63,951 bases of DNA. Origin: a virus (lineage: Duplodnaviria; Caudoviricetes). The number at the start of each line of letters is the position of its first letter. Position 1 is the stretch's first letter. Made by a program: the position numbers and the translations under genes. The stretch is from the IMG/VR virus record IMGVR_UViG_3300020593_000115, positions 1 to 63,951 of that record; one strand, written 5' to 3'. Of this stretch, positions 36,148-46,930 are shown piece by piece. The notes beneath the pieces are model-generated. The model was not told the origin of the DNA. It saw only the letters and a program-made list of their open reading frames with translations, and made no database searches.

Positions 36148-37272
36148 GTGAAATTTGAGCATCTAGTCTCGGCATTTCTGGCCGAGCCCTGGGCGATTCA
36201 GCGCGAAAAGCTCGGCATGCTGGCCGATGTCATCGTTGCGAGGGCTGAGGGCGAAAAACTCGTTACGTCGGAAATGGCCGCTGCCATTACCGACGCGCGC
36301 GCTAAGGAAATCGCTGAAACAGACGGCAAAGTGGCGGTTATTCCGGTTTACGGCGTACTTTCGCACAAAATGGACCTTATGTCCGCCATGTCGGGCGGCA
36401 CGAGCTACGCCGGCATCAAGAAGTCGCTGCATGCGGCGCTGGCAAACGAGGACGTCAAGGCCGTTGTGCTGGATATCGACAGTCCCGGCGGTTCTGTGCC
36501 CGGCACAGACGAGCTTGCGACGGAGATTCGGCGCATCCGCGGCGGCGAAAAGCCGATCGTGGCGCAGGTTAACAGCCTTGCGGCGTCTGCCGCGTACTGG
36601 ATTGCGTCTAGCGCCGATGAAATTGTTGTGACTCCCTCGGGCCGCGCTGGTTCGATTGGCGTTTATACGGCGCATGACGACATTTCCGCGGCGCTGGAAA
36701 AGCGCGGCATCAAGCGCACGTACATTTCGGCCGGCAAATACAAGGTCGAAGGGAACGAAACCGAGCCTCTTGGCAAGGATGCGCTGGCGCACATTCAGGA
36801 CAGCGTAAATCATTCCTATAAGAAGTTCGTTGCGGCTGTAGCCGAAGGGCGCGGCACAACTGTTGGCAAGGTTGAGGACGGCTACGGGCAGGGCCGCGTG
36901 TTTTACGCGCAGGCGCTCATGGACCGCGGCATGGTCGACGGTGTTGCAACGCTGGACGAGACACTGGAGCGCTTCGGCGCCGATACGCAGCCGGCATATG
37001 TGCGGCGCGTGAAGGCTTCCAACGAGGCGCGGGCACAGGACGCGCAAACGCTGGTGGCTAAACTACGCGCCGGCGAACCGATTACGAAACGCGAGTTTGA
37101 AAACGGCCTCAAGGGTCTTGCTGGTCTTTCAAACTCGGAGGCAGAGCGAGCCGCATCGCTTTACCTCAAGGAACGTCAGGGGGATCCTGATGCTGATGCG
37201 GATGCTGCTGTTTCGGCGGCCCTAGATCGGCTGATAGCCGAAACGAAATCATTCACAATCAACGCCAGTTAA
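36148..37272 (+). CDS. S49 family prohead protease
   Basis: IDSPGG, AASAAYWIAS, GSIGV, AGKYK. Confidence 0.92.
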   Translation: MKFEHLVSAFLAEPWAIQREKLGMLADVIVARAEGEKLVTSEMAAAITDARAKEIAETDGKVAVIPVYGVLSHKMDLMSAMSGGTSYAGIKKSLHAALANEDVKAVVLDIDSPGGSVPGTDELATEIRRIRGGEKPIVAQVNSLAASAAYWIASSADEIVVTPSGRAGSIGVYTAHDDISAALEKRGIKRTYISAGKYKVEGNETEPLGKDALAHIQDSVNHSYKKFVAAVAEGRGTTVGKVEDGYGQGRVFYAQALMDRGMVDGVATLDETLERFGADTQPAYVRRVKASNEARAQDAQTLVAKLRAGEPITKREFENGLKGLAGLSNSEAERAASLYLKERQGDPDADADAAVSAALDRLIAETKSFTINAS

Positions 37273-37291
37273 TCCCCGAAAGGATACATTC

Positions 37292-38509
37292 ATGGCTGAT
37301 AGTACCGCTCTCGCCGAGAAGATCGGCGAGCTTGGCCAGTCTTTGGCCTCCATCAAGGAGCAGGTCGGCAACCTCGCTTCCGATTTCACCGCAAAGCTTG
37401 AGTCCGCTGGTTCGGTTTCGGCCGAGGCGAAGGACAAGGTTGACCAGGCGCTTACCGAGCTTGGCGAGACCATCACCCGCGTTGGAGAGCTAGAGAAGCG
37501 CGCTGCCCGCGAGAAGGATGTCGTTGAGGCAGGCTTCAAGGATCTTGGCGACTACCTGGTTGAGTCCGAGCAGTTCAAGGCTATGGATAAGCATGGCCGT
37601 GGCTCCATCCGCGTTGCCGTTGAACATGCCGACATCACCTCGGCTAATGGCACGGTAGGCGCCGGCCGTTCGGCTGGTACGTCGCTGGTTCCCGGCCACC
37701 GCGTTCCCGGCATTATCACGCCGGCTCTGCGCACGCTGACGATTCGCGACTTGCTCGCTGCTGGTCAGACGTCCAGCAACAGCGTTGAGTACGTCAAGGA
37801 AACGGGCTTCACCAACAACGCCCGCCCGGTGACGGAAACCACGACCAAGCCGAAGTCGGACCTGACGTTCAACCTGTACACCTCGCCGGTTCGCACCATC
37901 GCACATATCTTCAAGGCTTCCCGCCAGATCATGGACGATGCTCCCGGCCTGGCCTCGTACATCAACGCTCGTGGCACCTACGGCCTGAAGTACGTCGAGG
38001 AGCAGCAGCTTCTTAACGGCAACGGCAGCGGCCAGAACCTGAATGGCCTTGTCCCGCAGGCTACCGCGTTTGCTCCGGCATTCAATGCTGCGGACGAAAC
38101 CGCCATTGACCGCCTACGCCTTGCCATCCTGCAGGTTGTGCTCGCCGAGTACCCGGCCACCGGCTTCGTGCTCAACCCGATTGACTGGGCGCGTGTTGAA
38201 CTGACGAAGGACGGCGAAGGCCGTTACATCGTCGGTAATGCGATTTCGCCGATCGGCCCGTCTCTTTGGGGTCTGCCGGTTGTTGCTACGCAGGCTATGG
38301 CTGCCGGCGAGTTCCTTACGGGCGCCTTCAACCTTGGTGCGCAGATTTTCGACCGCATGGGCGTCGAGGTTCTTCTTTCGACCGAGAACTCGGACGACTT
38401 CGAGAAGAACATGGTGACCATCCGCGTCGAGGAGCGGCTTGCGTTTGTCGTGACGCGTCCTGAGTCCTTTGTGACCGGCGACGTCGACACCCTGACGACC
38501 GCAGAGTAA
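37292..38509 (+). CDS. HK97-fold major capsid protein
   Basis: N-terminal coiled-coil delta domain; LWGLPVV, FEKNMVTIRVEERL. Confidence 0.95.
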   Translation: MADSTALAEKIGELGQSLASIKEQVGNLASDFTAKLESAGSVSAEAKDKVDQALTELGETITRVGELEKRAAREKDVVEAGFKDLGDYLVESEQFKAMDKHGRGSIRVAVEHADITSANGTVGAGRSAGTSLVPGHRVPGIITPALRTLTIRDLLAAGQTSSNSVEYVKETGFTNNARPVTETTTKPKSDLTFNLYTSPVRTIAHIFKASRQIMDDAPGLASYINARGTYGLKYVEEQQLLNGNGSGQNLNGLVPQATAFAPAFNAADETAIDRLRLAILQVVLAEYPATGFVLNPIDWARVELTKDGEGRYIVGNAISPIGPSLWGLPVVATQAMAAGEFLTGAFNLGAQIFDRMGVEVLLSTENSDDFEKNMVTIRVEERLAFVVTRPESFVTGDVDTLTTAE

Positions 38510-38517
38510 TCCATTAT

Positions 38518-38548
38518 GTGGGCGGGCTAGCCCCGCCCACCTTCTTAT
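38518..38548 (+). terminator. Hairpin after the capsid gene
   Basis: gtgggcggg-ctagc-cccgcccac with a weak U tail. Confidence 0.55.
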
Positions 38549-38560
38549 CTGGAAAACAGC

Positions 38561-38887
38561 ATGAAAATTCGCGCCTTGAAGACTACCGCGGGTAGTTATG
38601 GCCTTTTGCCACGCGGCAAGACGGCTGACGTGCCGGACTGGGAGGCAAAGGATATGATTGCCGCCGGTTACGCCACGGCAGTCATACCCGACGACAAGCT
38701 TCCGGCTGTGCCGAGAGTTAGTGCCGCGTCGCAAAATGCCAATCCAAGGGAGGCGAGTGACGCCGACCCTTTCACGGCGCCCCGGACTGGTGGCCAAAAT
38801 GGCGAGGTGAAACAGTCACCATCGTCGCAAGTGGGCCGTCAGCGGCAGAAACGCCGATCGACCTCGCGAAAGGGCGATGCCGGGTAA
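38561..38887 (+). CDS. Small head-region protein (frameshift donor candidate)
   Basis: MKIRALK...MIAAGYA motif seen in small post-capsid proteins. Confidence 0.7.
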   Translation: MKIRALKTTAGSYGLLPRGKTADVPDWEAKDMIAAGYATAVIPDDKLPAVPRVSAASQNANPREASDADPFTAPRTGGQNGEVKQSPSSQVGRQRQKRRSTSRKGDAG

Positions 38888-39399
38888 TAGCGATAAACAA
38901 CTCGTACCGATTGGCGCCGTGGGCGGATATATTCTACGCCTGCGATAGCGAGTGGTGGGAAAAACACCACGCGGACGTTAATTGTTACCCCGCGCTAAAG
39001 ATCGCCATTCAAGAGGACGGCCGAAAACTGAAATGGCCGGACGTCAAGCCGATTAGCGTCGTTCGCAACGACGACTCGCTGCGGTTTGAGAGATTTGGCG
39101 AAGTGGGGTGGGGCGGAAATTCTGGATTTCACGCCATAAACCTCGCCGTGCAGTTCGGCGCCAAGAGGATTGTCCTTGTCGGCTACGACATGCGGCTTGA
39201 TGGCGGCATTCATTGGCACGGCAGGCACGGCAACGGATTGCACAACCCGTCCAATAGCAATGTGGCTCGCTGGCGAAGAGTTATAGACGAGGCCGCGCCG
39301 CTGCTTACGAGGTTGGGCGTCGAGGTGGTTAACACCTCTCCCGTTAGCGCGCTTACCGCATACCCGAAAATGACACTTGAGGCGGCCTTGGCTGCTTAG
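38767..39399 (+). CDS. Glycosyltransferase-like domain (GxGPS/MAF-flag10-like), probably expressed by -1 frameshift
   Basis: Frame is open from 38761: TIVASGPS..VIAINNSY..ACD..GGNSG..AINLA..GAKRIVLVGYD; first standard start only at 38911. Confidence 0.7.
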   Translation, partial: PFHGAPDWWPKWRGETVTIVASGPSAAETPIDLAKGRCRVIAINNSYRLAPWADIFYACDSEWWEKHHADVNCYPALKIAIQEDGRKLKWPDVKPISVVRNDDSLRFERFGEVGWGGNSGFHAINLAVQFGAKRIVLVGYDMRLDGGIHWHGRHGNGLHNPSNSNVARWRRVIDEAAPLLTRLGVEVVNTSPVSALTAYPKMTLEAALAA

Positions 39400-39408
39400 G
39401 GAGGCCGC

Positions 39409-39750
39409 ATGGCGCTCGTTGATATTGCGCTGGTCAAAAAGCACCTGCGCGTGTTCCATACGGATGACGATACGGAAATTGCGGCTTACCAGGCGGCGGC
39501 CGAGACGATCGTTAAAGAATACGTCGATCGCGTAGTCTATGAGGCAGGTGGCAGCGCTCCGTCGGGGGATGACGGGACGGCAATAGAGGTTACGCCGGCC
39601 ATTACGGCGGCAATCTTGCTGCTTATTGGCGATCTATATGAGCGCCGAGAATCCAACACATGGGAACCAGAACAGGCGACGCTGCCGAAATCAGTGCGCG
39701 CGCTACTGGCGCCGTACCGCGTGTGGCGAACTATTGATGAGGAAGAATAA
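39409..39750 (+). CDS. Head-tail connector (gp6-like)
   Basis: VKKHLRV, AAILLLIGDLYERRE, LLAPYR. Confidence 0.9.
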   Translation: MALVDIALVKKHLRVFHTDDDTEIAAYQAAAETIVKEYVDRVVYEAGGSAPSGDDGTAIEVTPAITAAILLLIGDLYERRESNTWEPEQATLPKSVRALLAPYRVWRTIDEEE

Positions 39751-40157
39751 TGCAAGGCATGCAGCCCAAAAATTACCACACAGAAGGCGGCAACAAGTGG
39801 GTTGTCGGCGGTGAGATTGAATTCACGCCAGACGCCAAGGTTACCGGCCTTGGTGCCGACGATGTAAACGTTGCGTGGAACGCCATTACAGGCAAGCCTG
39901 CGGTTATAGCAGCAGGCGCGACGCAGCAGGCCGCGCGTGAAGCAATTGGCGCCGCTGCCGCAGGTGGCGAGGTTTCGGTTGCGTGGGATGACGTGACGGA
40001 CAAGCCTACGTTTGCCCCCGTTGCCACGACTGGAGCCTATGGCGACCTGACTGGAGCTCCGCAGGGCGCGGCCGTGGAGGACGCAACCGATGATGCGGTA
40101 GCGACCGTTAACGCCATCCCTGCCAGCCTGCGCGGCGCAGGGCTTATCGCCACGTAA
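39750..40157 (+). CDS. Head fiber / decoration protein
   Basis: WNAITGKP and WDDVTDKP repeats; VNAI..SLRGAGLIA C-terminus. Confidence 0.65.
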   Translation: MQGMQPKNYHTEGGNKWVVGGEIEFTPDAKVTGLGADDVNVAWNAITGKPAVIAAGATQQAAREAIGAAAAGGEVSVAWDDVTDKPTFAPVATTGAYGDLTGAPQGAAVEDATDDAVATVNAIPASLRGAGLIAT

Positions 40158-40759
40158 TGCGCATAGTCACCGTCCTGCGCACAGGCGGCGAGTACCGGCA
40201 GAAGCACGTCGAGCGCCTGCGCAGGCAGTGCGCCAAGTGGGCGCCGGGCGTTGAGTTTACGTGCCTGACGGACACCAACGGCACACTGCGCCATGATTGG
40301 CCGGGGTGGTGGTCGAAGATGGAGCTATTCCGCCCAGATATTAAGGGCGATTTACTCTATTTCGACCTCGATACGTCGATTGTCGGCCCTCTCGATGATA
40401 TCTTTGCCGTGCGGAAGTTGGCGCTCCTGCGTGACTTCTATCGCCCCGATGGACTTGGATCCGGCATGATGTTTTTGCCGGAAGAATGTCGCGGCGAAAT
40501 CTGGCGTGCGTGGGCTGAAGATCCGATGCGCCACATGCGAGTGCATAGACGCGGTGGAGACCAGGCATTCCTTGAGCGATTCTGGCTCGACAAGGCTGCA
40601 CGGTGGCAGGATGCCGCACCGGAGCAAGTTATTTCATACAAGGTGCATGTTCGCCAGGCCGTCATAAAGGGCCGAGAGTACGGCAACGGAACGATGCCAG
40701 AAAGTGCACGCGTGGTTTGCTTCCACGGCAAGCCGCGCCCTTGGGATATCGGATGGTGA
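40157..40759 (+). CDS. GT8-like glycosyltransferase
   Basis: WWSKMELF, YFDLD (DxD), GDQAFL, CFHGKPRPW. Confidence 0.82.
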   Translation: MRIVTVLRTGGEYRQKHVERLRRQCAKWAPGVEFTCLTDTNGTLRHDWPGWWSKMELFRPDIKGDLLYFDLDTSIVGPLDDIFAVRKLALLRDFYRPDGLGSGMMFLPEECRGEIWRAWAEDPMRHMRVHRRGGDQAFLERFWLDKAARWQDAAPEQVISYKVHVRQAVIKGREYGNGTMPESARVVCFHGKPRPWDIGW

Positions 40760-41310
40760 AAGAGTTCGAGCAGCGCGGCGATGCCATATTGCGCCGCCTT
40801 CCACCGAGCGCTTGCGCGGTAGAGGTTGGCGTTTTCCTAGGTACTCTCTCTGAATATCTTCTCCAGCGTAGATCAGATTTGCGCCTTTCGCTGGTGGATA
40901 GCTGGCTGCCAGCAGAGCAACACCCGCAAGCATACCGCAACACGCGGGACGAACACGCGCACGTTAGCGCCGAGAAGGTTGCCATTCAGCGCGCAACGGC
41001 ACTCGATAAAGTGAAGCCATTCGGTGCGCGAGCATTGGTTATCGAGATGGCGTCGTTTGACGCTGCGGCGACGGTGGACGACTGCAGTCTTGACTTGGTT
41101 TTTCTCGACGCCGACCACTCTTATGAGGGGGTGCGCGCAGACATCAGAGCTTGGCTGCCTAAGGTGAAGCCCGGCGGATGGATCGGCGGACACGACTACC
41201 AAAATCCGACGGCGCTATACGACTTTTCCGGTGTGAAACGCGCCGTCGATGAAGCGTTCCCTGAGGGTGTGGAGTTGGACGAGAATTTTACTTGGTTTCG
41301 GAGGTGCTGA
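40753..41310 (+). CDS. Class I SAM methyltransferase (Methyltransf_24-like)
   Basis: VEVGVFLG, VDSW, FLDADHSYEGV, KPGGWIGGHDY. Confidence 0.88.
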   Translation: MVKEFEQRGDAILRRLPPSACAVEVGVFLGTLSEYLLQRRSDLRLSLVDSWLPAEQHPQAYRNTRDEHAHVSAEKVAIQRATALDKVKPFGARALVIEMASFDAAATVDDCSLDLVFLDADHSYEGVRADIRAWLPKVKPGGWIGGHDYQNPTALYDFSGVKRAVDEAFPEGVELDENFTWFRRC

Positions 41311-41489
41311 TGCCCTGGGTAAAGTTTGTCGAGGAATTCTCCTACAAGCCAAAGCCACAGGTCACGCAGGTATACAAGGCACCGGGTGTATATCTGGTGA
41401 CGAGCGCTTGCGCTCGGGCGGCAATCGACAGCGGAAAAGCATTCGCCGCTGAAAGGCCAAGTAAGGGCAGCGCAAATGGTGGATCGTAA
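41310..41489 (+). CDS. Small hypothetical virion-region protein
   Basis: MPWVKF... with TGATG coupling. Confidence 0.6.
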   Translation: MPWVKFVEEFSYKPKPQVTQVYKAPGVYLVTSACARAAIDSGKAFAAERPSKGSANGGS

Positions 41490-41847
41490 GGGCGCCGGCT
41501 CATTAAACCAAATGGTTACGTTCCAGCGTCGAGTTGAGTTTGACGACGGTTTCGGCGGCACGCGTGGTGAGTGGCAGGACCAGTTTACGGTACCGGCGAG
41601 GCTGAAGGCGCGGCTTGGCACGGAGTCAGTTATCGCCGCCAGGCTCCAAGGGACACAGCCATACACAATGGTCATCCGCAGTAGCCAGCAGTCACGAGCG
41701 ATAACGCCTGCTTGGCGTGTTTATGACGCTCGCGCGGGTATCGGGAGTGAGGGCGTACCGAGCCGCTTGTTTGACATAAAAGCTGTCTCCAATGTTGATG
41801 AGCGAAACAAATACCTTGATCTTCTGGTCGTTGAAAACGGTGTTTAG
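41476..41847 (+). CDS. Head closure / head-tail joining protein
   Basis: AGSLNQMVTFQ, DGFGG, FDIKAV. Confidence 0.85.
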   Translation: MVDRKGAGSLNQMVTFQRRVEFDDGFGGTRGEWQDQFTVPARLKARLGTESVIAARLQGTQPYTMVIRSSQQSRAITPAWRVYDARAGIGSEGVPSRLFDIKAVSNVDERNKYLDLLVVENGV

Positions 41848-42816: not shown

Positions 42817-43269
42817 ATGGCACAAGCCGCTACAATCAAAGGCGGAAAGATTCGTGTTCAGATCGGCGACGGAGGTAGCCCGATTACCTATACCGCGCCG
42901 TGTGGTCTGACACAGCGGAGTATCACTCTTAGTAAGTCGCTCAACGAAGTTTCAATTCCAAACTGCGAAGACCCTGACAAGGTTGACTGGGTAGGGCGCG
43001 ACGCTGCCTCTCTCTCGATGGCCATCAGCGGAGAAGGTGTATTGGCGTCGCAGTCCATTGAGACGTGGCTAGACGCGGCCGAGAGCATTGATTCCGTTGA
43101 TGTCAAAGTCGAGATCGAATTCCCGGCAACGACGTACACCTATACCGGCAAGATGCAGGTGGAGTCGCTTGAGATAGGCGCCAACAACGGTGAACGAGCT
43201 ACGATTAACATCTCGATGCAGTCGGACGGCGAGATGGTGCGTGCGTCCAATCCTACGCAAGGTAGTTGA
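42817..43269 (+). CDS. Tail tube protein
   Basis: APCGLT, SMAISGEGV, ISMQSDG; position in the tail operon. Confidence 0.85.
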   Translation: MAQAATIKGGKIRVQIGDGGSPITYTAPCGLTQRSITLSKSLNEVSIPNCEDPDKVDWVGRDAASLSMAISGEGVLASQSIETWLDAAESIDSVDVKVEIEFPATTYTYTGKMQVESLEIGANNGERATINISMQSDGEMVRASNPTQGS

Positions 43270-43685
43270 TGTCACGAGATGCATCCATAGAAGTAGACTG
43301 GGGCGATGGCGAACATCGCTTCAGGCTCGCTTGGGGTGAATTGGTGAAGGTGCAGGAGGCGTGCGACGCCGGTCCATATGTCATATTGAATCGCCTTGGT
43401 GACGGATCGTGGCTCCTGAATGATATCCGCGAGGTTATTCGATACGGTTTGATTGGCGGCGGGGCTGAGCCATCCGCGGCGTTAAAGCTGGTTCGTGAGT
43501 ATGTCGAGGGGCGCCCACCGCTCGAGAACATTCTGTTGGCAAGGGCGATCTTGTCCGCCGCGCTGATGGGGGCGCCGGATGAAAAGGTGGGGGAGCCGGG
43601 GGCGGCAAATCAGGAGGAGAAAGACTTGACAGTCTCCCAAGAGGGAAACTCAGATTTGCCGCTATCTATGGAAATGGAGCCGTAA
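43269..43685 (+). CDS. Tail assembly chaperone (GTA-gp10-like)
   Basis: WGDGEHRFRL, VIRYGLIGGG; position after the tube gene. Confidence 0.8.
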   Translation: MSRDASIEVDWGDGEHRFRLAWGELVKVQEACDAGPYVILNRLGDGSWLLNDIREVIRYGLIGGGAEPSAALKLVREYVEGRPPLENILLARAILSAALMGAPDEKVGEPGAANQEEKDLTVSQEGNSDLPLSMEMEP

Positions 43686-43825
43686 TGGGGTTTACGCCCC
43701 AACAGGTCAATCAGATGAGCATGTGGCAGTGGATGGCAGCCGCTGAAGGATTTATTGCCGCAAATTCCCCTGAAGAGACGGGTCTTTCTCCGTCAGAGGT
43801 CGATGAGCTTTGGGAATGGCTCTGA
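43685..43825 (+). CDS. Tail chaperone T-like segment (probable -1 frameshift extension)
   Basis: RFAAIYGNGAVMGFTPQQVNQMSMWQW in the -1 frame. Confidence 0.65.
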   Translation: MGFTPQQVNQMSMWQWMAAAEGFIAANSPEETGLSPSEVDELWEWL

Positions 43826-44173: not shown

Positions 44174-46930
44174 ATGGCGACTGACCTGGAAAGGCTTGTA
44201 GTTCAGCTATCGGCCGACATAAAGTCTTATGAGCGTGCCGTGGGGCGTGCTGTTGGCCTTACCAACAAACAAATGGGCGCCATAGAGCGCCGCGCCAGCC
44301 AGATGAACAAAAGGCTGGACTCTATCTTTTCCAAGTCGTTCAACGGGTTAACCGCACCGCTGGCCGGTGTTGGCGCAGCGTTCGGCGCAAAGCAGATCAG
44401 CGACTATGCCGATGCGTGGACGGTGGCAGGCAACAAGATCGCGGCGGCTTCGCAGATCGCAGGTCGTCAAGGTCGGTCCCTTGAGGGCGTCAACGAAATC
44501 GCCAATCGAACCCGGTCGAGCCTTGAATCGACCACTGATCTGTATGCGAAGCTGCTCAGATCAACCGGCGCGGTGGCGAGTTCGGAAGAAGAGGTCGCCC
44601 GCGCAACAGAAATCGTTAACAAGGCTTTTAAGGCCGGTGGCGCCGCAACCAGTGAGCAAACGGCTGGCATTCTTCAGTTAAGCCAGGCGCTGGGATCCGG
44701 CTTGCTGCAGGGCGACGAGTTGCGATCGCTGCGTGAGAACGCGCCGCTTATCGCGCAGGCCATTGCCGACGAATTCAAGACGACTATCGCGGGCCTTAAG
44801 CAACTTGGGGCAGACGGCGAACTAACAACGGATCGCGTTTTTAAGGCTATCCTGAGTGCGCAGCCGAAGATTGAGGCGGCCTTTTCAAAGACCAACTCAA
44901 CCATTGCTGACGGCATCACCAGGGTCAACAATGCGTTCACCCAGTATATTGGGCAGACAGATTCCGGTCTGGGCGCATCGCAGAGGCTTGTGGCCGGGCT
45001 TACCGCGCTAGCCGACAATTTTGACAACACCGCCGATATCGTTCTGAAACTGGCGTCGGTGATTGCCGGCGCGCTCGTGGGACGCTCAATTGTTGGCATG
45101 ATCCGCAGCCTTGGTTTGGCAACGAATGCGGTCGTGTCGCTTGTTGGCGCACTTCGAACAGCATCAAGCATGTCCGGGCTCCTTGCTGCTTTTGGTGGTC
45201 TAGGGGCTGCTGCTGGACCACTTGGGATGGTCATCGGGAGTACGGTGGTTGGTGCGCTCGCGCTGTTTGCAAGCTCCTCTTCCGAGGCGAGTGCAGCGGC
45301 AAAGACTTATGCGGACGCGTTGGCCGAAGTGGAGGCGGCCGCGAACCGGGTTCCCTCGGCTGTAGAAGGTGCCGCCACAAAAATCAGCGAGAAAACTAGA
45401 AACGTCCTAATGGCGGGTGTGGCGGAAGGGGTTAATGCGATTGACGAGGCCAGGGCGGCTGTTGAAGAGCTTTTCGATTTTCTGACGCAAAGCGTGGAAA
45501 TTTCGATGGTATCGGAAGACCAGCTGCGCCAGCTTCGTGAGCTCAAGGAGCGTTTTGACGACGGGTCTGCATCGGCGGAAGAAACGCAGCAGGCGCTCTA
45601 CGGACTAGCGAATTCGAACCCAGACTTCCAAGAAATCGCCGATCGCTTCGAACCTCTTTTGACAACGTTGCGAAACGCTATCGCGGCGACCGACTTGCTG
45701 AAAACCAAGCTTGCCGATGTGCCGTCAGGTCCGTCGTTCCGTACCTCCGAAATTCAGTCGATGAGCGACTATGAGGAGCTGAAAAGGGCCGGCAACGCAT
45801 TCGTCAAAGAAGCGGAGCGTCGTAACGCCCTGTCGAAGGAGCAGTTGGCACTTGAGGAAGAAATAGCCAAGGTAAAAAAGGCGGCCGATAAAGAAGGCGC
45901 CGCCCTTACCGAAAAACAGATCAAGGCTATCGCTGAAGCAAACATCGCCGCAGACGAGAGACGTTCTCAAGAAAGCAAAAAGCCCAAGAAAACCCCGTCC
46001 GCTCCGCGCACCGCGGAAAGTCGATTCAATGATGACATTCAGACGGTGCGAGACAGAACCGCTGCACTGATTCAGGAAGCACAGGCGGTAGGTCTCTCGT
46101 ACCGCGAGCAAGAAAAGCGCAGAATGGCGCTCGACCTTGAACAGGCTGCACTTGCGGACCTCCGCGAGGAGGCGCGCAAGAAGGGCCAGACTGACTTTTC
46201 GAATATCAAGCTTACCGAAGAGCAGATTGCCAAGATCGATGCTGTTTCGGCCGCATACGCCAAGCAGGCGGATGAGCTGCGCAAGGTGCAGGAAGCGCAA
46301 GACCGGGCCGAGCAGGCCGCTTCCGATTTTTACGAAAGCTTCAAAGACGGCGTCCTGGACGCGATCACGGGGGCGGAAAGCCTCAGCGATGCGTTGTCCG
46401 GGGTTCTGAAGAAGCTTTCCGAGATGCTCCTTAACTCGGCCTTCGACGCCCTGTTTAAGCCCTCTAGTGGCGGCTCTACAGGTGGCACGTACGGGGGCAT
46501 TTTGGGCAGCTTGGGGAAACTTCTCGGCTTCAACAAAGGTGGCGTTGTCCACGCGGCTACGGGGGGGCAAATCCGCGGCCCCGGCGGCCCGCGCAGCGAC
46601 AGCATACCGGCGCGCCTCAGCGATGGGGAGTTTGTCGTAAACGCTGCGGCTACCAAGCGAAATCTAAAACTGCTGAATGCGATTAACAGCGGGAAGATTG
46701 CTTCGTTCGCGGATGGTGGCCCAGTCATCCGTGCTCCAATGATCCCACGGTTGCTGACGCCGGCCAACAACAATTCGCCAAACATCACCTTTGCCCCAGT
46801 CATTGACGCGCGCGGCGCGGATAGCGCAGCGGTGGCAAGACTCGAGCAAGTCGTTGCGAAACAGCAGCAAGAGTTTCAGGCCCGCGTTGTGCACACGGTG
46901 CGACAGGCGCAAAAGACGCGAAACTTGTAG
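44174..46930 (+). CDS. Tail tape measure protein
   Basis: 918 aa Ala-rich helical protein; QLSQALGSG.LQGDELRS, SDSIPARLSDGEFV. Confidence 0.95.
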   Translation: MATDLERLVVQLSADIKSYERAVGRAVGLTNKQMGAIERRASQMNKRLDSIFSKSFNGLTAPLAGVGAAFGAKQISDYADAWTVAGNKIAAASQIAGRQGRSLEGVNEIANRTRSSLESTTDLYAKLLRSTGAVASSEEEVARATEIVNKAFKAGGAATSEQTAGILQLSQALGSGLLQGDELRSLRENAPLIAQAIADEFKTTIAGLKQLGADGELTTDRVFKAILSAQPKIEAAFSKTNSTIADGITRVNNAFTQYIGQTDSGLGASQRLVAGLTALADNFDNTADIVLKLASVIAGALVGRSIVGMIRSLGLATNAVVSLVGALRTASSMSGLLAAFGGLGAAAGPLGMVIGSTVVGALALFASSSSEASAAAKTYADALAEVEAAANRVPSAVEGAATKISEKTRNVLMAGVAEGVNAIDEARAAVEELFDFLTQSVEISMVSEDQLRQLRELKERFDDGSASAEETQQALYGLANSNPDFQEIADRFEPLLTTLRNAIAATDLLKTKLADVPSGPSFRTSEIQSMSDYEELKRAGNAFVKEAERRNALSKEQLALEEEIAKVKKAADKEGAALTEKQIKAIAEANIAADERRSQESKKPKKTPSAPRTAESRFNDDIQTVRDRTAALIQEAQAVGLSYREQEKRRMALDLEQAALADLREEARKKGQTDFSNIKLTEEQIAKIDAVSAAYAKQADELRKVQEAQDRAEQAASDFYESFKDGVLDAITGAESLSDALSGVLKKLSEMLLNSAFDALFKPSSGGSTGGTYGGILGSLGKLLGFNKGGVVHAATGGQIRGPGGPRSDSIPARLSDGEFVVNAAATKRNLKLLNAINSGKIASFADGGPVIRAPMIPRLLTPANNNSPNITFAPVIDARGADSAAVARLEQVVAKQQQEFQARVVHTVRQAQKTRNL

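Follow-up and report, generated by a model that had tools for sequence, protein, structure and literature searches.

A candidate -1 frameshift in a phage head module that would join a small domain to a glycosyltransferase-like enzyme

How is an enzyme domain translated when its reading frame has no start codon of its own? The question is raised by the head module of a tailed virus (Duplodnaviria; Caudoviricetes) deposited in IMG/VR as IMGVR_UViG_3300020593_000115, the whole of which (63,951 nucleotides, hereafter the window) was analysed. Directly behind the major capsid gene lies a small open reading frame (ORF) encoding a 108-aa protein (38561..38887, on the plus strand, as are all features of the slip region described below). 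The frame at -1 relative to this ORF encodes a glycosyltransferase-like domain that extends well beyond it (38773..39399, 208 codons and a stop) and lacks its own start codon. An earlier reading, made from the sequence alone, proposed that a -1 ribosomal frameshift fuses the two, and that this frameshift is distinct from the one usually found at tail chaperone genes. We compared the locus with its relatives and conclude that the fusion is probably made by -1 recoding at positions 38767-38773, an interpretation to which we assign a probability of about 0.85.

In the proposed mechanism, ribosomes that start at ATG 38561 would mostly stay in frame and produce the 108-aa protein. A fraction would slip back by one base on C CCU UUC, with the tRNA-Pro moving from CCU to CCC and the tRNA-Phe from UUC to UUU, and would then read the -1 frame to 39399, giving a 279-aa fusion of the small domain, a linker and the glycosyltransferase-like domain. 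The enzyme domain would have no other route of translation than this slip. By comparison of the loci, the frame relation and the slip motif are conserved and the -1 frame is selected from the slip site onward; that the slippage at C CCU UUC is ribosomal is what we infer from this pattern.

The slip region and the missing start codon

The enzyme frame (frame 1) is closed two codons ahead of the slip site by a TGA at 38758..38760 and, from 38761 immediately after it, stays open until the stop at 39397-39399. Its first ATG, GTG or TTG codon is the TTG at 38911, and the ORF expected from a gene caller would begin there and encode only 162 aa (38911..39399). Both parts of the sequence-only reading on this point hold. 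The first position of the PHROG 4603 profile ('alpha-2,3-sialyltransferase') aligns with residue 22 of the stop-to-stop translation (E 5e-53), which places the N-terminus of the family upstream of any possible start and agrees with the earlier view that the frame encodes a family-type N-terminus.

In the zero frame of the small ORF, the codons GAC CCT TTC (38765-38773) contain the proposed in-frame X XXY YYZ heptamer, C CCT TTC (38767..38773). Slippage by -1 at this heptamer would join 71 zero-frame residues, the last of them Phe 71, to 208 enzyme-frame residues beginning with His (CAC, 38773-38775). The sizes of the two products (108 and 279 aa) and the junction peptide are as the sequence-only reading gave them. 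A Shine-Dalgarno-like GGGAGG (38748..38753) lies 13 nt before the heptamer and is a possible upstream stimulator, which would help the slippage. The heptamer by itself is not above chance: CCCTTTC occurs six times on the two strands of the window against 7.84 expected, and at least six copies were found in 82 of 100 shuffles. What counts is its position and its conservation in relatives.

The enzyme could also be translated independently, with no fusion at all, either from TTG 38911 or from a non-canonical codon in the -1 frame. The TTG is indeed present, and gene callers annotate truncated forms of this kind, one example being the record of Tetraselmis viridis virus S20 described below. A start at 38911 would, however, leave out the invariant W, G, GPS and N columns of the family (W..G..GPS..N), all of which are encoded upstream of it, together with the first, N-terminal Rossmann-type strand and a loop. 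No NTG or ATN codon is present in the enzyme frame between 38761 and the ATC at 38821. In relatives that do have their own start, this start immediately precedes the PDW(W/F)P motif, and from the slip site onward the enzyme frame is conserved as protein. We consider an independent start very improbable in the window.

The best match among cultured-phage records is Tetraselmis viridis virus S20 (NC_020840.1, locus L001), whose enzyme is 41% identical to that of the window. It has the same gene order and carries C CCT TTG at the same place, and its enzyme frame opens exactly there. In the public record the enzyme is annotated from an internal ATG, about 100 codons late, and is thus truncated; the upstream ORF is listed as a separate hypothetical protein (L001:2795-3265), and the frameshift is unannotated. 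The S20 record names an alga as the host, yet the genes are those of a tailed phage.

Frame layout, selection and slip motif among the relatives

Loci were gathered from viral and genome collections (9 + 15 + 80, with some contigs fetched twice), and 106 stretches, namely the window and 105 loci, were searched. All had an enzyme match, and the GPS anchor of the enzyme was recognisable in 101; those dropped for want of the anchor were L026, L045, L073, L087 and L096. The locus of PAJU2 (L002) was kept out of the local database, and L022, which is cut by a contig end, was dropped. Six loci in which the small ORF is divergent but the layout unchanged (L016, L057, L067, L094, L100 and L101) were assigned to the frameshift type by eye and not by the hidden Markov model (HMM) of the small domain.

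The small-domain HMM matched 45 of the 101 anchored stretches. In 37 of these 45 the small domain is adjacent to the enzyme and the enzyme lies at -1, and 27 such loci remain after removal of identical copies, with enzymes that are 35-65% identical. An adjacent small domain in the other shifted frame was found in none of the 45, and only one (L061, where the fusion stands directly after a capsid gene) has the small domain in frame with the enzyme. The remaining seven (L069-72, L077/79 and L095) carry a separate small-domain gene about 800 nt upstream of an enzyme with its own ATG. When 72 distinct enzymes are considered, the frameshift type accounts for 33, an in-frame fusion for one and an own start for 38. 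In a quick maximum-likelihood tree of these enzymes the frameshift type falls on both sides of the midpoint root, at least eight changes of state are needed, and at least three are forced by well-supported branches.

A second in-frame fusion is protein P0004, residues 1-42 of which match the small-domain HMM (E 5e-7). Of the 13 long proteins compared with the HMM, it alone matched. P0004 was not matched by the 108-aa protein in BLASTP, nor was protein P0009 by the small-domain HMM. The in-frame fusions (L061 and P0004) show that the fused architecture is functional.

To measure constraint on the enzyme frame, 23 loci (without L085, L086, L098 and L102) were compared over a block of 57 ungapped nt from the WWP motif onward, which precedes any start codon. 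Nucleotide diversity at enzyme-frame codon positions 1, 2 and 3 is 0.21, 0.21 and 0.48, and amino-acid identity, averaged over pairs of loci, is 0.72 when the block is read in the enzyme frame and 0.44 when it is read in the zero frame. The two measures together indicate that the enzyme frame is conserved as a protein and the zero-frame tail is not. By this count of codon positions, selection acts on the -1 frame already from the slip site, ahead of any start codon.

The zero-frame tails, at 38774-38887 in the window and in the relatives, are rich in Ser, Arg and Lys. They stop 37 to 193 nt past the GPS anchor among the 23 loci, and 64-70 nt past it in 13. The basic tail may be a by-product of the enzyme codons or a functional tail.

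A broken gene or an assembly error would give the same picture in a single record, if an in-frame fusion or two separate genes had been disturbed by a one-base indel. The in-frame fusions and the own-start homologs (38 of 72) are what such an origin would call for, and the sequence-only reading had held that homologs of either kind would imply an indel here. That implication does not follow, because 33 of the 72 distinct homologs keep the -1 layout. The 27 non-identical loci, whose enzymes diverge to about 35% identity, all share the -1 relation, the other shift was never seen, and purifying selection acts on the enzyme frame. The same frame is kept in contigs of runs X5 and X6, which come from two other studies. 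These contigs cross 38602-39395 without a gap and show gaps only ahead of the ORF, at 38523 and 38531; the substitution nearest the slip site is 38747 A>T. Two further runs (X7 and X11) span the slip region only partly and weigh neither way. An indel is scarcely credible as the source of the layout, and the comparison of loci, along with the independent contigs, strongly backs a programmed -1 slip.

The slip motif was scored at the homologous codon, four to eight codons before PDW(W/F)P, in the 33 frameshift-type enzymes. C CCT TTN is found in 16 loci, C CCA AAG in one, and A AAA AAG in three distant relatives, and the motif is a canonical X XXY YYZ heptamer in 20 of the 33. Elsewhere C CCT is followed by another codon (seven loci), or the motif is N NNT TTT (three), C CCG (one), G CCA AAG (one) or not assignable (one). 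Conservation of the heptamer in homologous loci, which had been put forward as a check on the frameshift, is therefore partial: it extends to these 20 loci and fails in 13. Seven of 15 CCCTTTN loci have a Shine-Dalgarno-like 5-mer between -22 and -6, compared with 3.7% of background windows; its spacing varies, and the p-value of this enrichment is overstated because the loci are related.

The fusion may also be made by a different kind of recoding, either RNA polymerase slippage that adds a base within CCCTTT or slippage of a single tRNA in the P site. Most of the 13 non-canonical relatives keep just C CCT or T TTT, a sign that slippage in the P site can be enough, and the A-run sites of L100-L102 could allow transcriptional slippage. 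The majority motif is nevertheless the canonical tandem-slippage heptamer, and runs of three C and three T are, to our knowledge, too short for known transcriptional slippage. Recoding of another kind appears to us quite improbable for the window.

Several observations weigh against simple tandem slippage at a classical programmed site. The 13 of 33 frameshift-type loci that lack a canonical heptamer, most of which keep one slippery codon, fit either a lower rate of single-tRNA slippage or a mechanism that differs there. We did not find a conserved downstream RNA structure in the alignments that were folded, from which L001 was excluded (RNAalifold -1.97 kcal/mol, no covariation), and 60-nt folds gave z-scores from +0.99 to -3.84 over 15 loci, only one of them below -2. 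In the window itself, an 87-nt stretch folds with -36.1 kcal/mol (z -2.14). The zero frame continues for 37 codons past the site here and for up to about 80 in relatives, an extension longer than many classical sites have. The counts given above come from related loci and are not independent events. Finally, a far-upstream ATG, TTG or GTG that overlaps the small ORF is present in the enzyme frame of L033/35, L037-39, L046, L067 and L098, where an overprinted independent start may be possible.

A side observation concerns the codons just before the slip site. In L003 (L003:2965-2986), L007, L011, L012, L056 and L029 the zero frame encodes an A-N-D-N motif a few codons upstream, and the TGA that closes the -1 frame is part of its nucleotides (AATGAC). 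The window encodes S-D-A-D there. The A-N-D-N motif looks like the start of the alphaproteobacterial ssrA tag.

The head module and its two domains

Profile matches of the window ORFs, with the gene order read from 36148 to 41847, show that the small ORF and the enzyme frame are surrounded by an HK97-type head module. An S49-type head maturation protease (36148-37272) is followed by the HK97-type major capsid gene (37292..38509, plus strand; PHROG 10, E 3e-88), directly upstream of the small ORF. Compared with solved chains, the capsid protein matches HK97 gp5 (E about 1e-82) and 9osb (E 9e-122). After the enzyme come a head-tail adaptor (39409-39750), a fibre-like protein (39750-40157), a second glycosyltransferase (40157-40759), a methyltransferase that ends at 41310 and a head-closure protein (41476-41847). 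In a contig of run X5 the 13 bases between the enzyme stop region and the adaptor start (39395-39409) are swapped for 214 other letters, a variant that amounts to an insertion between the enzyme and adaptor genes.

The AlphaFold2 model of the enzyme domain has a mean confidence (predicted local distance difference test, pLDDT) of 94.7 and a single Rossmann-type fold of the GT-A-variant kind. It is similar to the sialyltransferase CstII (GT42; 1ro7/1ro8, E 6e-5 to 8e-4, TMq 0.55-0.60) and to the Maf flagellin glycosyltransferase 5mu5 (TMq 0.65), and it also resembles the MptE-type HPPK 8sd5. Sequence identity to these solved enzymes is 12-15%. The MptE-like Pfam family PF01973 matches 24 of 26 relatives at E<=0.01, and the window enzyme scores 22.2 bits, below the curated cut-off of 34.6. 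The columns H..W.G.H and GPS are invariant in the alignment. By its predicted fold, the enzyme thus resembles a CstII/Maf-like (CMP-sugar-type) glycosyltransferase domain. In three loci with an own-start enzyme (L058, L059 and L060) the enzyme follows a collagen-like protein with G-x-y repeats and not the small domain; this protein, encoded about 300 nt upstream, is a possible glycosylation substrate.

The other partner is a domain of 46 aa (38561..38698) with four short strands, a helix and a further strand, followed by a linker that reaches to the slip site (38699..38766, delimited from the alignment of relatives). Relatives differ in the composition of the linker and in its length, which reaches about 90 residues in S20 and is as short as a few residues elsewhere. 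PHROG 2616 matches residues 1-68 of the 108-aa protein (E 9e-9). The AlphaFold2 model of the small domain (pLDDT 86.5) has a fold like those of the ribosomal protein L9 N-domain, the GINS B-domain and the lambda gpFI C-domain, as judged by Foldseek and VIA; against gpFI (2lsm) VIA gave Z 5.8 and a root-mean-square deviation of 0.9 A over 41 residues. The same fold recurs in BFVD among many small phage proteins that are uncharacterised (TMq 0.77-0.95). Weak matches were obtained to DUF7302 for nine and to DUF7210 for five of 22 small-domain members.

The sequence-only reading suggested that the fusion could tether the enzyme to the head at low stoichiometry, and the support for the tether comes from in-silico evidence, namely the post-capsid position, the gpFI-C-like fold and a complex model with controls. 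All 24 loci with complete upstream DNA have a capsid gene 39-176 nt before the small ORF; two others are truncated by the end of their contig. Models of the capsid protein with the small domain reached ipSAE scores of 0.61, 0.61 and 0.57, against 0.00 for the best control. The mark applied to ipSAE is reached by 58 of 80 solved complexes and by two of 110 mismatched pairs, counts that are rough for the present comparison, which used custom alignments. At least 95% of contacts are common to the runs, the partner pLDDT is at least 81, and the modelled interface involves capsid residues 238-255, 337, 340 and 395. The complex model lends support to the predicted binding of the small domain to the capsid protein.

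Lambda gpFI, a DNA packaging chaperone, offers the closest parallel for such docking. Passages of one paper (PMC4856287), and of a review (PMC13595911), describe it as bound to the capsid-protein lattice of the prohead. Like the small ORF, the gpFI gene stands directly after the major capsid gene, and the predicted fold of the small domain resembles that of gpFI (PDB 2lsm). There is no significant sequence relation between the two, gpFI carries the domain at its C-terminus where the present protein has it at the N-terminus, and the partner in the present case is an enzyme. Docking of the small domain on the HK97-type capsid lattice, as proposed for gpFI, would place the enzyme of the fusion at the head. 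We judge the chance of this to be about even.

The fold evidence also has points that count against docking. The fold is common, the VIA Z lies below 8, and the L9-N and GINS domains reach Z 6-7.3, as high as or higher than gpFI; a VIA Z under 8 may reflect merely a common arrangement. Comparison of profiles with lambda FI was insignificant (hhalign probability 3%, with FI residues 106-130 as the aligned stretch), and a sequence search with the small domain against solved structures returned nothing below E 0.05.

The frameshift may thus be real and the small domain not dock on the capsid, having instead another head partner (fibre, portal or terminase), acting in its short form as a gpFI-like packaging helper, or serving only to set the dose of the enzyme. 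The small fold is generic, stand-alone small-domain genes occur where the enzyme has its own start, and the zero-frame tails are rich in basic residues; a passage of the paper cited above (PMC4856287) states that gpFI is proposed to act via non-specific DNA binding. The complex model with the capsid protein, on the other hand, passed all three controls, and the capsid gene adjoins in every complete locus (24 of 24). We regard a role other than docking on the capsid as unlikely, though well short of negligible.

Relation to known frameshifts and meaning for phage heads

The frameshift proposed here is of a known kind. The G/GT tail assembly chaperones of lambda-like phages are reportedly produced by a -1 frameshift, which Levin et al. 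in 1993 and Xu, Hendrix and Duda in 2004 are said to have described. As proposed for the present locus, a conserved X XXY YYZ site for a -1 slip lies in the structural operon, the short and long products share their N-terminal part, the second frame lacks a start codon, and slippage sets the ratio of the two. The head-module site differs in that it would join another gene pair, belongs to the head module and not the tail module, and would add an enzyme domain as the extension. The window also has a tail-chaperone site of the usual type, G GGA AAC at 43643-43649 in the ORF 43266-43685, with the -1 frame open at 43583-43825, just before the gene of a 918-aa tape measure protein (44174-46930). 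The head-module site would accordingly be a second frameshift in this phage, and the earlier claim that it is distinct from the tail-chaperone one stands.

Extensions of capsid proteins offer another comparison. The T7 and T3 gene 10A/10B pair gains a C-terminal extension of the capsid protein by frameshifting, and Fraser et al. in 2006 reportedly described Ig-like domains as frameshift-made extensions of capsid proteins. Here too, frameshifting would add a domain to a fraction of a head-associated protein, with the differences that the carrier is a small post-capsid protein and the cargo a glycosyltransferase-like enzyme of about 200 residues. At the level of the signal, Escherichia coli dnaX uses A AAA AAG, which is preceded by a Shine-Dalgarno-like element and followed by a hairpin. 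The window likewise has a Shine-Dalgarno-like element upstream, and the three distant relatives mentioned above use A AAA AAG itself; unlike dnaX, the window heptamer is C CCU UUC, and a conserved downstream hairpin was not found among the folded loci.

Mycobacteriophages glycosylate their virions with glycosyltransferases encoded in structural operons. The window likewise has glycosyltransferase and methyltransferase genes among its head and neck genes, and its candidate frameshifted enzyme is alike in fold to CstII, Maf and MptE-like PF01973 proteins, at the low identity and the sub-cut-off Pfam score given above. For phage Maravista, capsid glycosylation has been suggested (PMC11256854). 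A fusion placed at the head would act with the second glycosyltransferase (40157-40759) and the methyltransferase (to 41310) in modifying virion proteins, and the slip frequency would set the ratio of enzyme to small protein. Among the PubMed Central papers under Creative Commons (CC) licences and the bioRxiv preprints searched, supplements aside, a frameshift-made fusion of an enzyme to a head-module domain is undescribed; the mechanism is known in kind, and it is the gene pair, the position in the head module and the enzyme cargo that those sources do not describe.

One possible scenario, which we regard as less likely than not, goes further. A fixed minority of a protein that binds the capsid lattice would carry the sialyltransferase-like enzyme on a flexible leash, be delivered to the assembling head and glycosylate capsid or fibre in place. 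The unslipped, basic-tailed form would be a gpFI-like assembly or packaging helper, and the arrangement would have been kept, or re-made many times, and sometimes hard-wired in frame.

For annotation, the consequence is that gene callers, like the S20 record that we examined, truncate the enzyme or miss its N-terminus, so that a whole family of phage enzymes is mis-annotated. Many HK97-type phages would then carry, alongside the tail-chaperone site, another conserved programmed frameshift within the structural operon, and what it adds would be an enzyme in place of a structural extension. The series of slip sites from canonical to degenerate at one homologous position would be useful for defining the minimal needs of a bacterial -1 site. 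If true, the arrangement would represent an enzyme-tethering use of frameshifting, and it would explain, in a concrete and testable way, how the enzymes of virion glycosylation reach their substrate.

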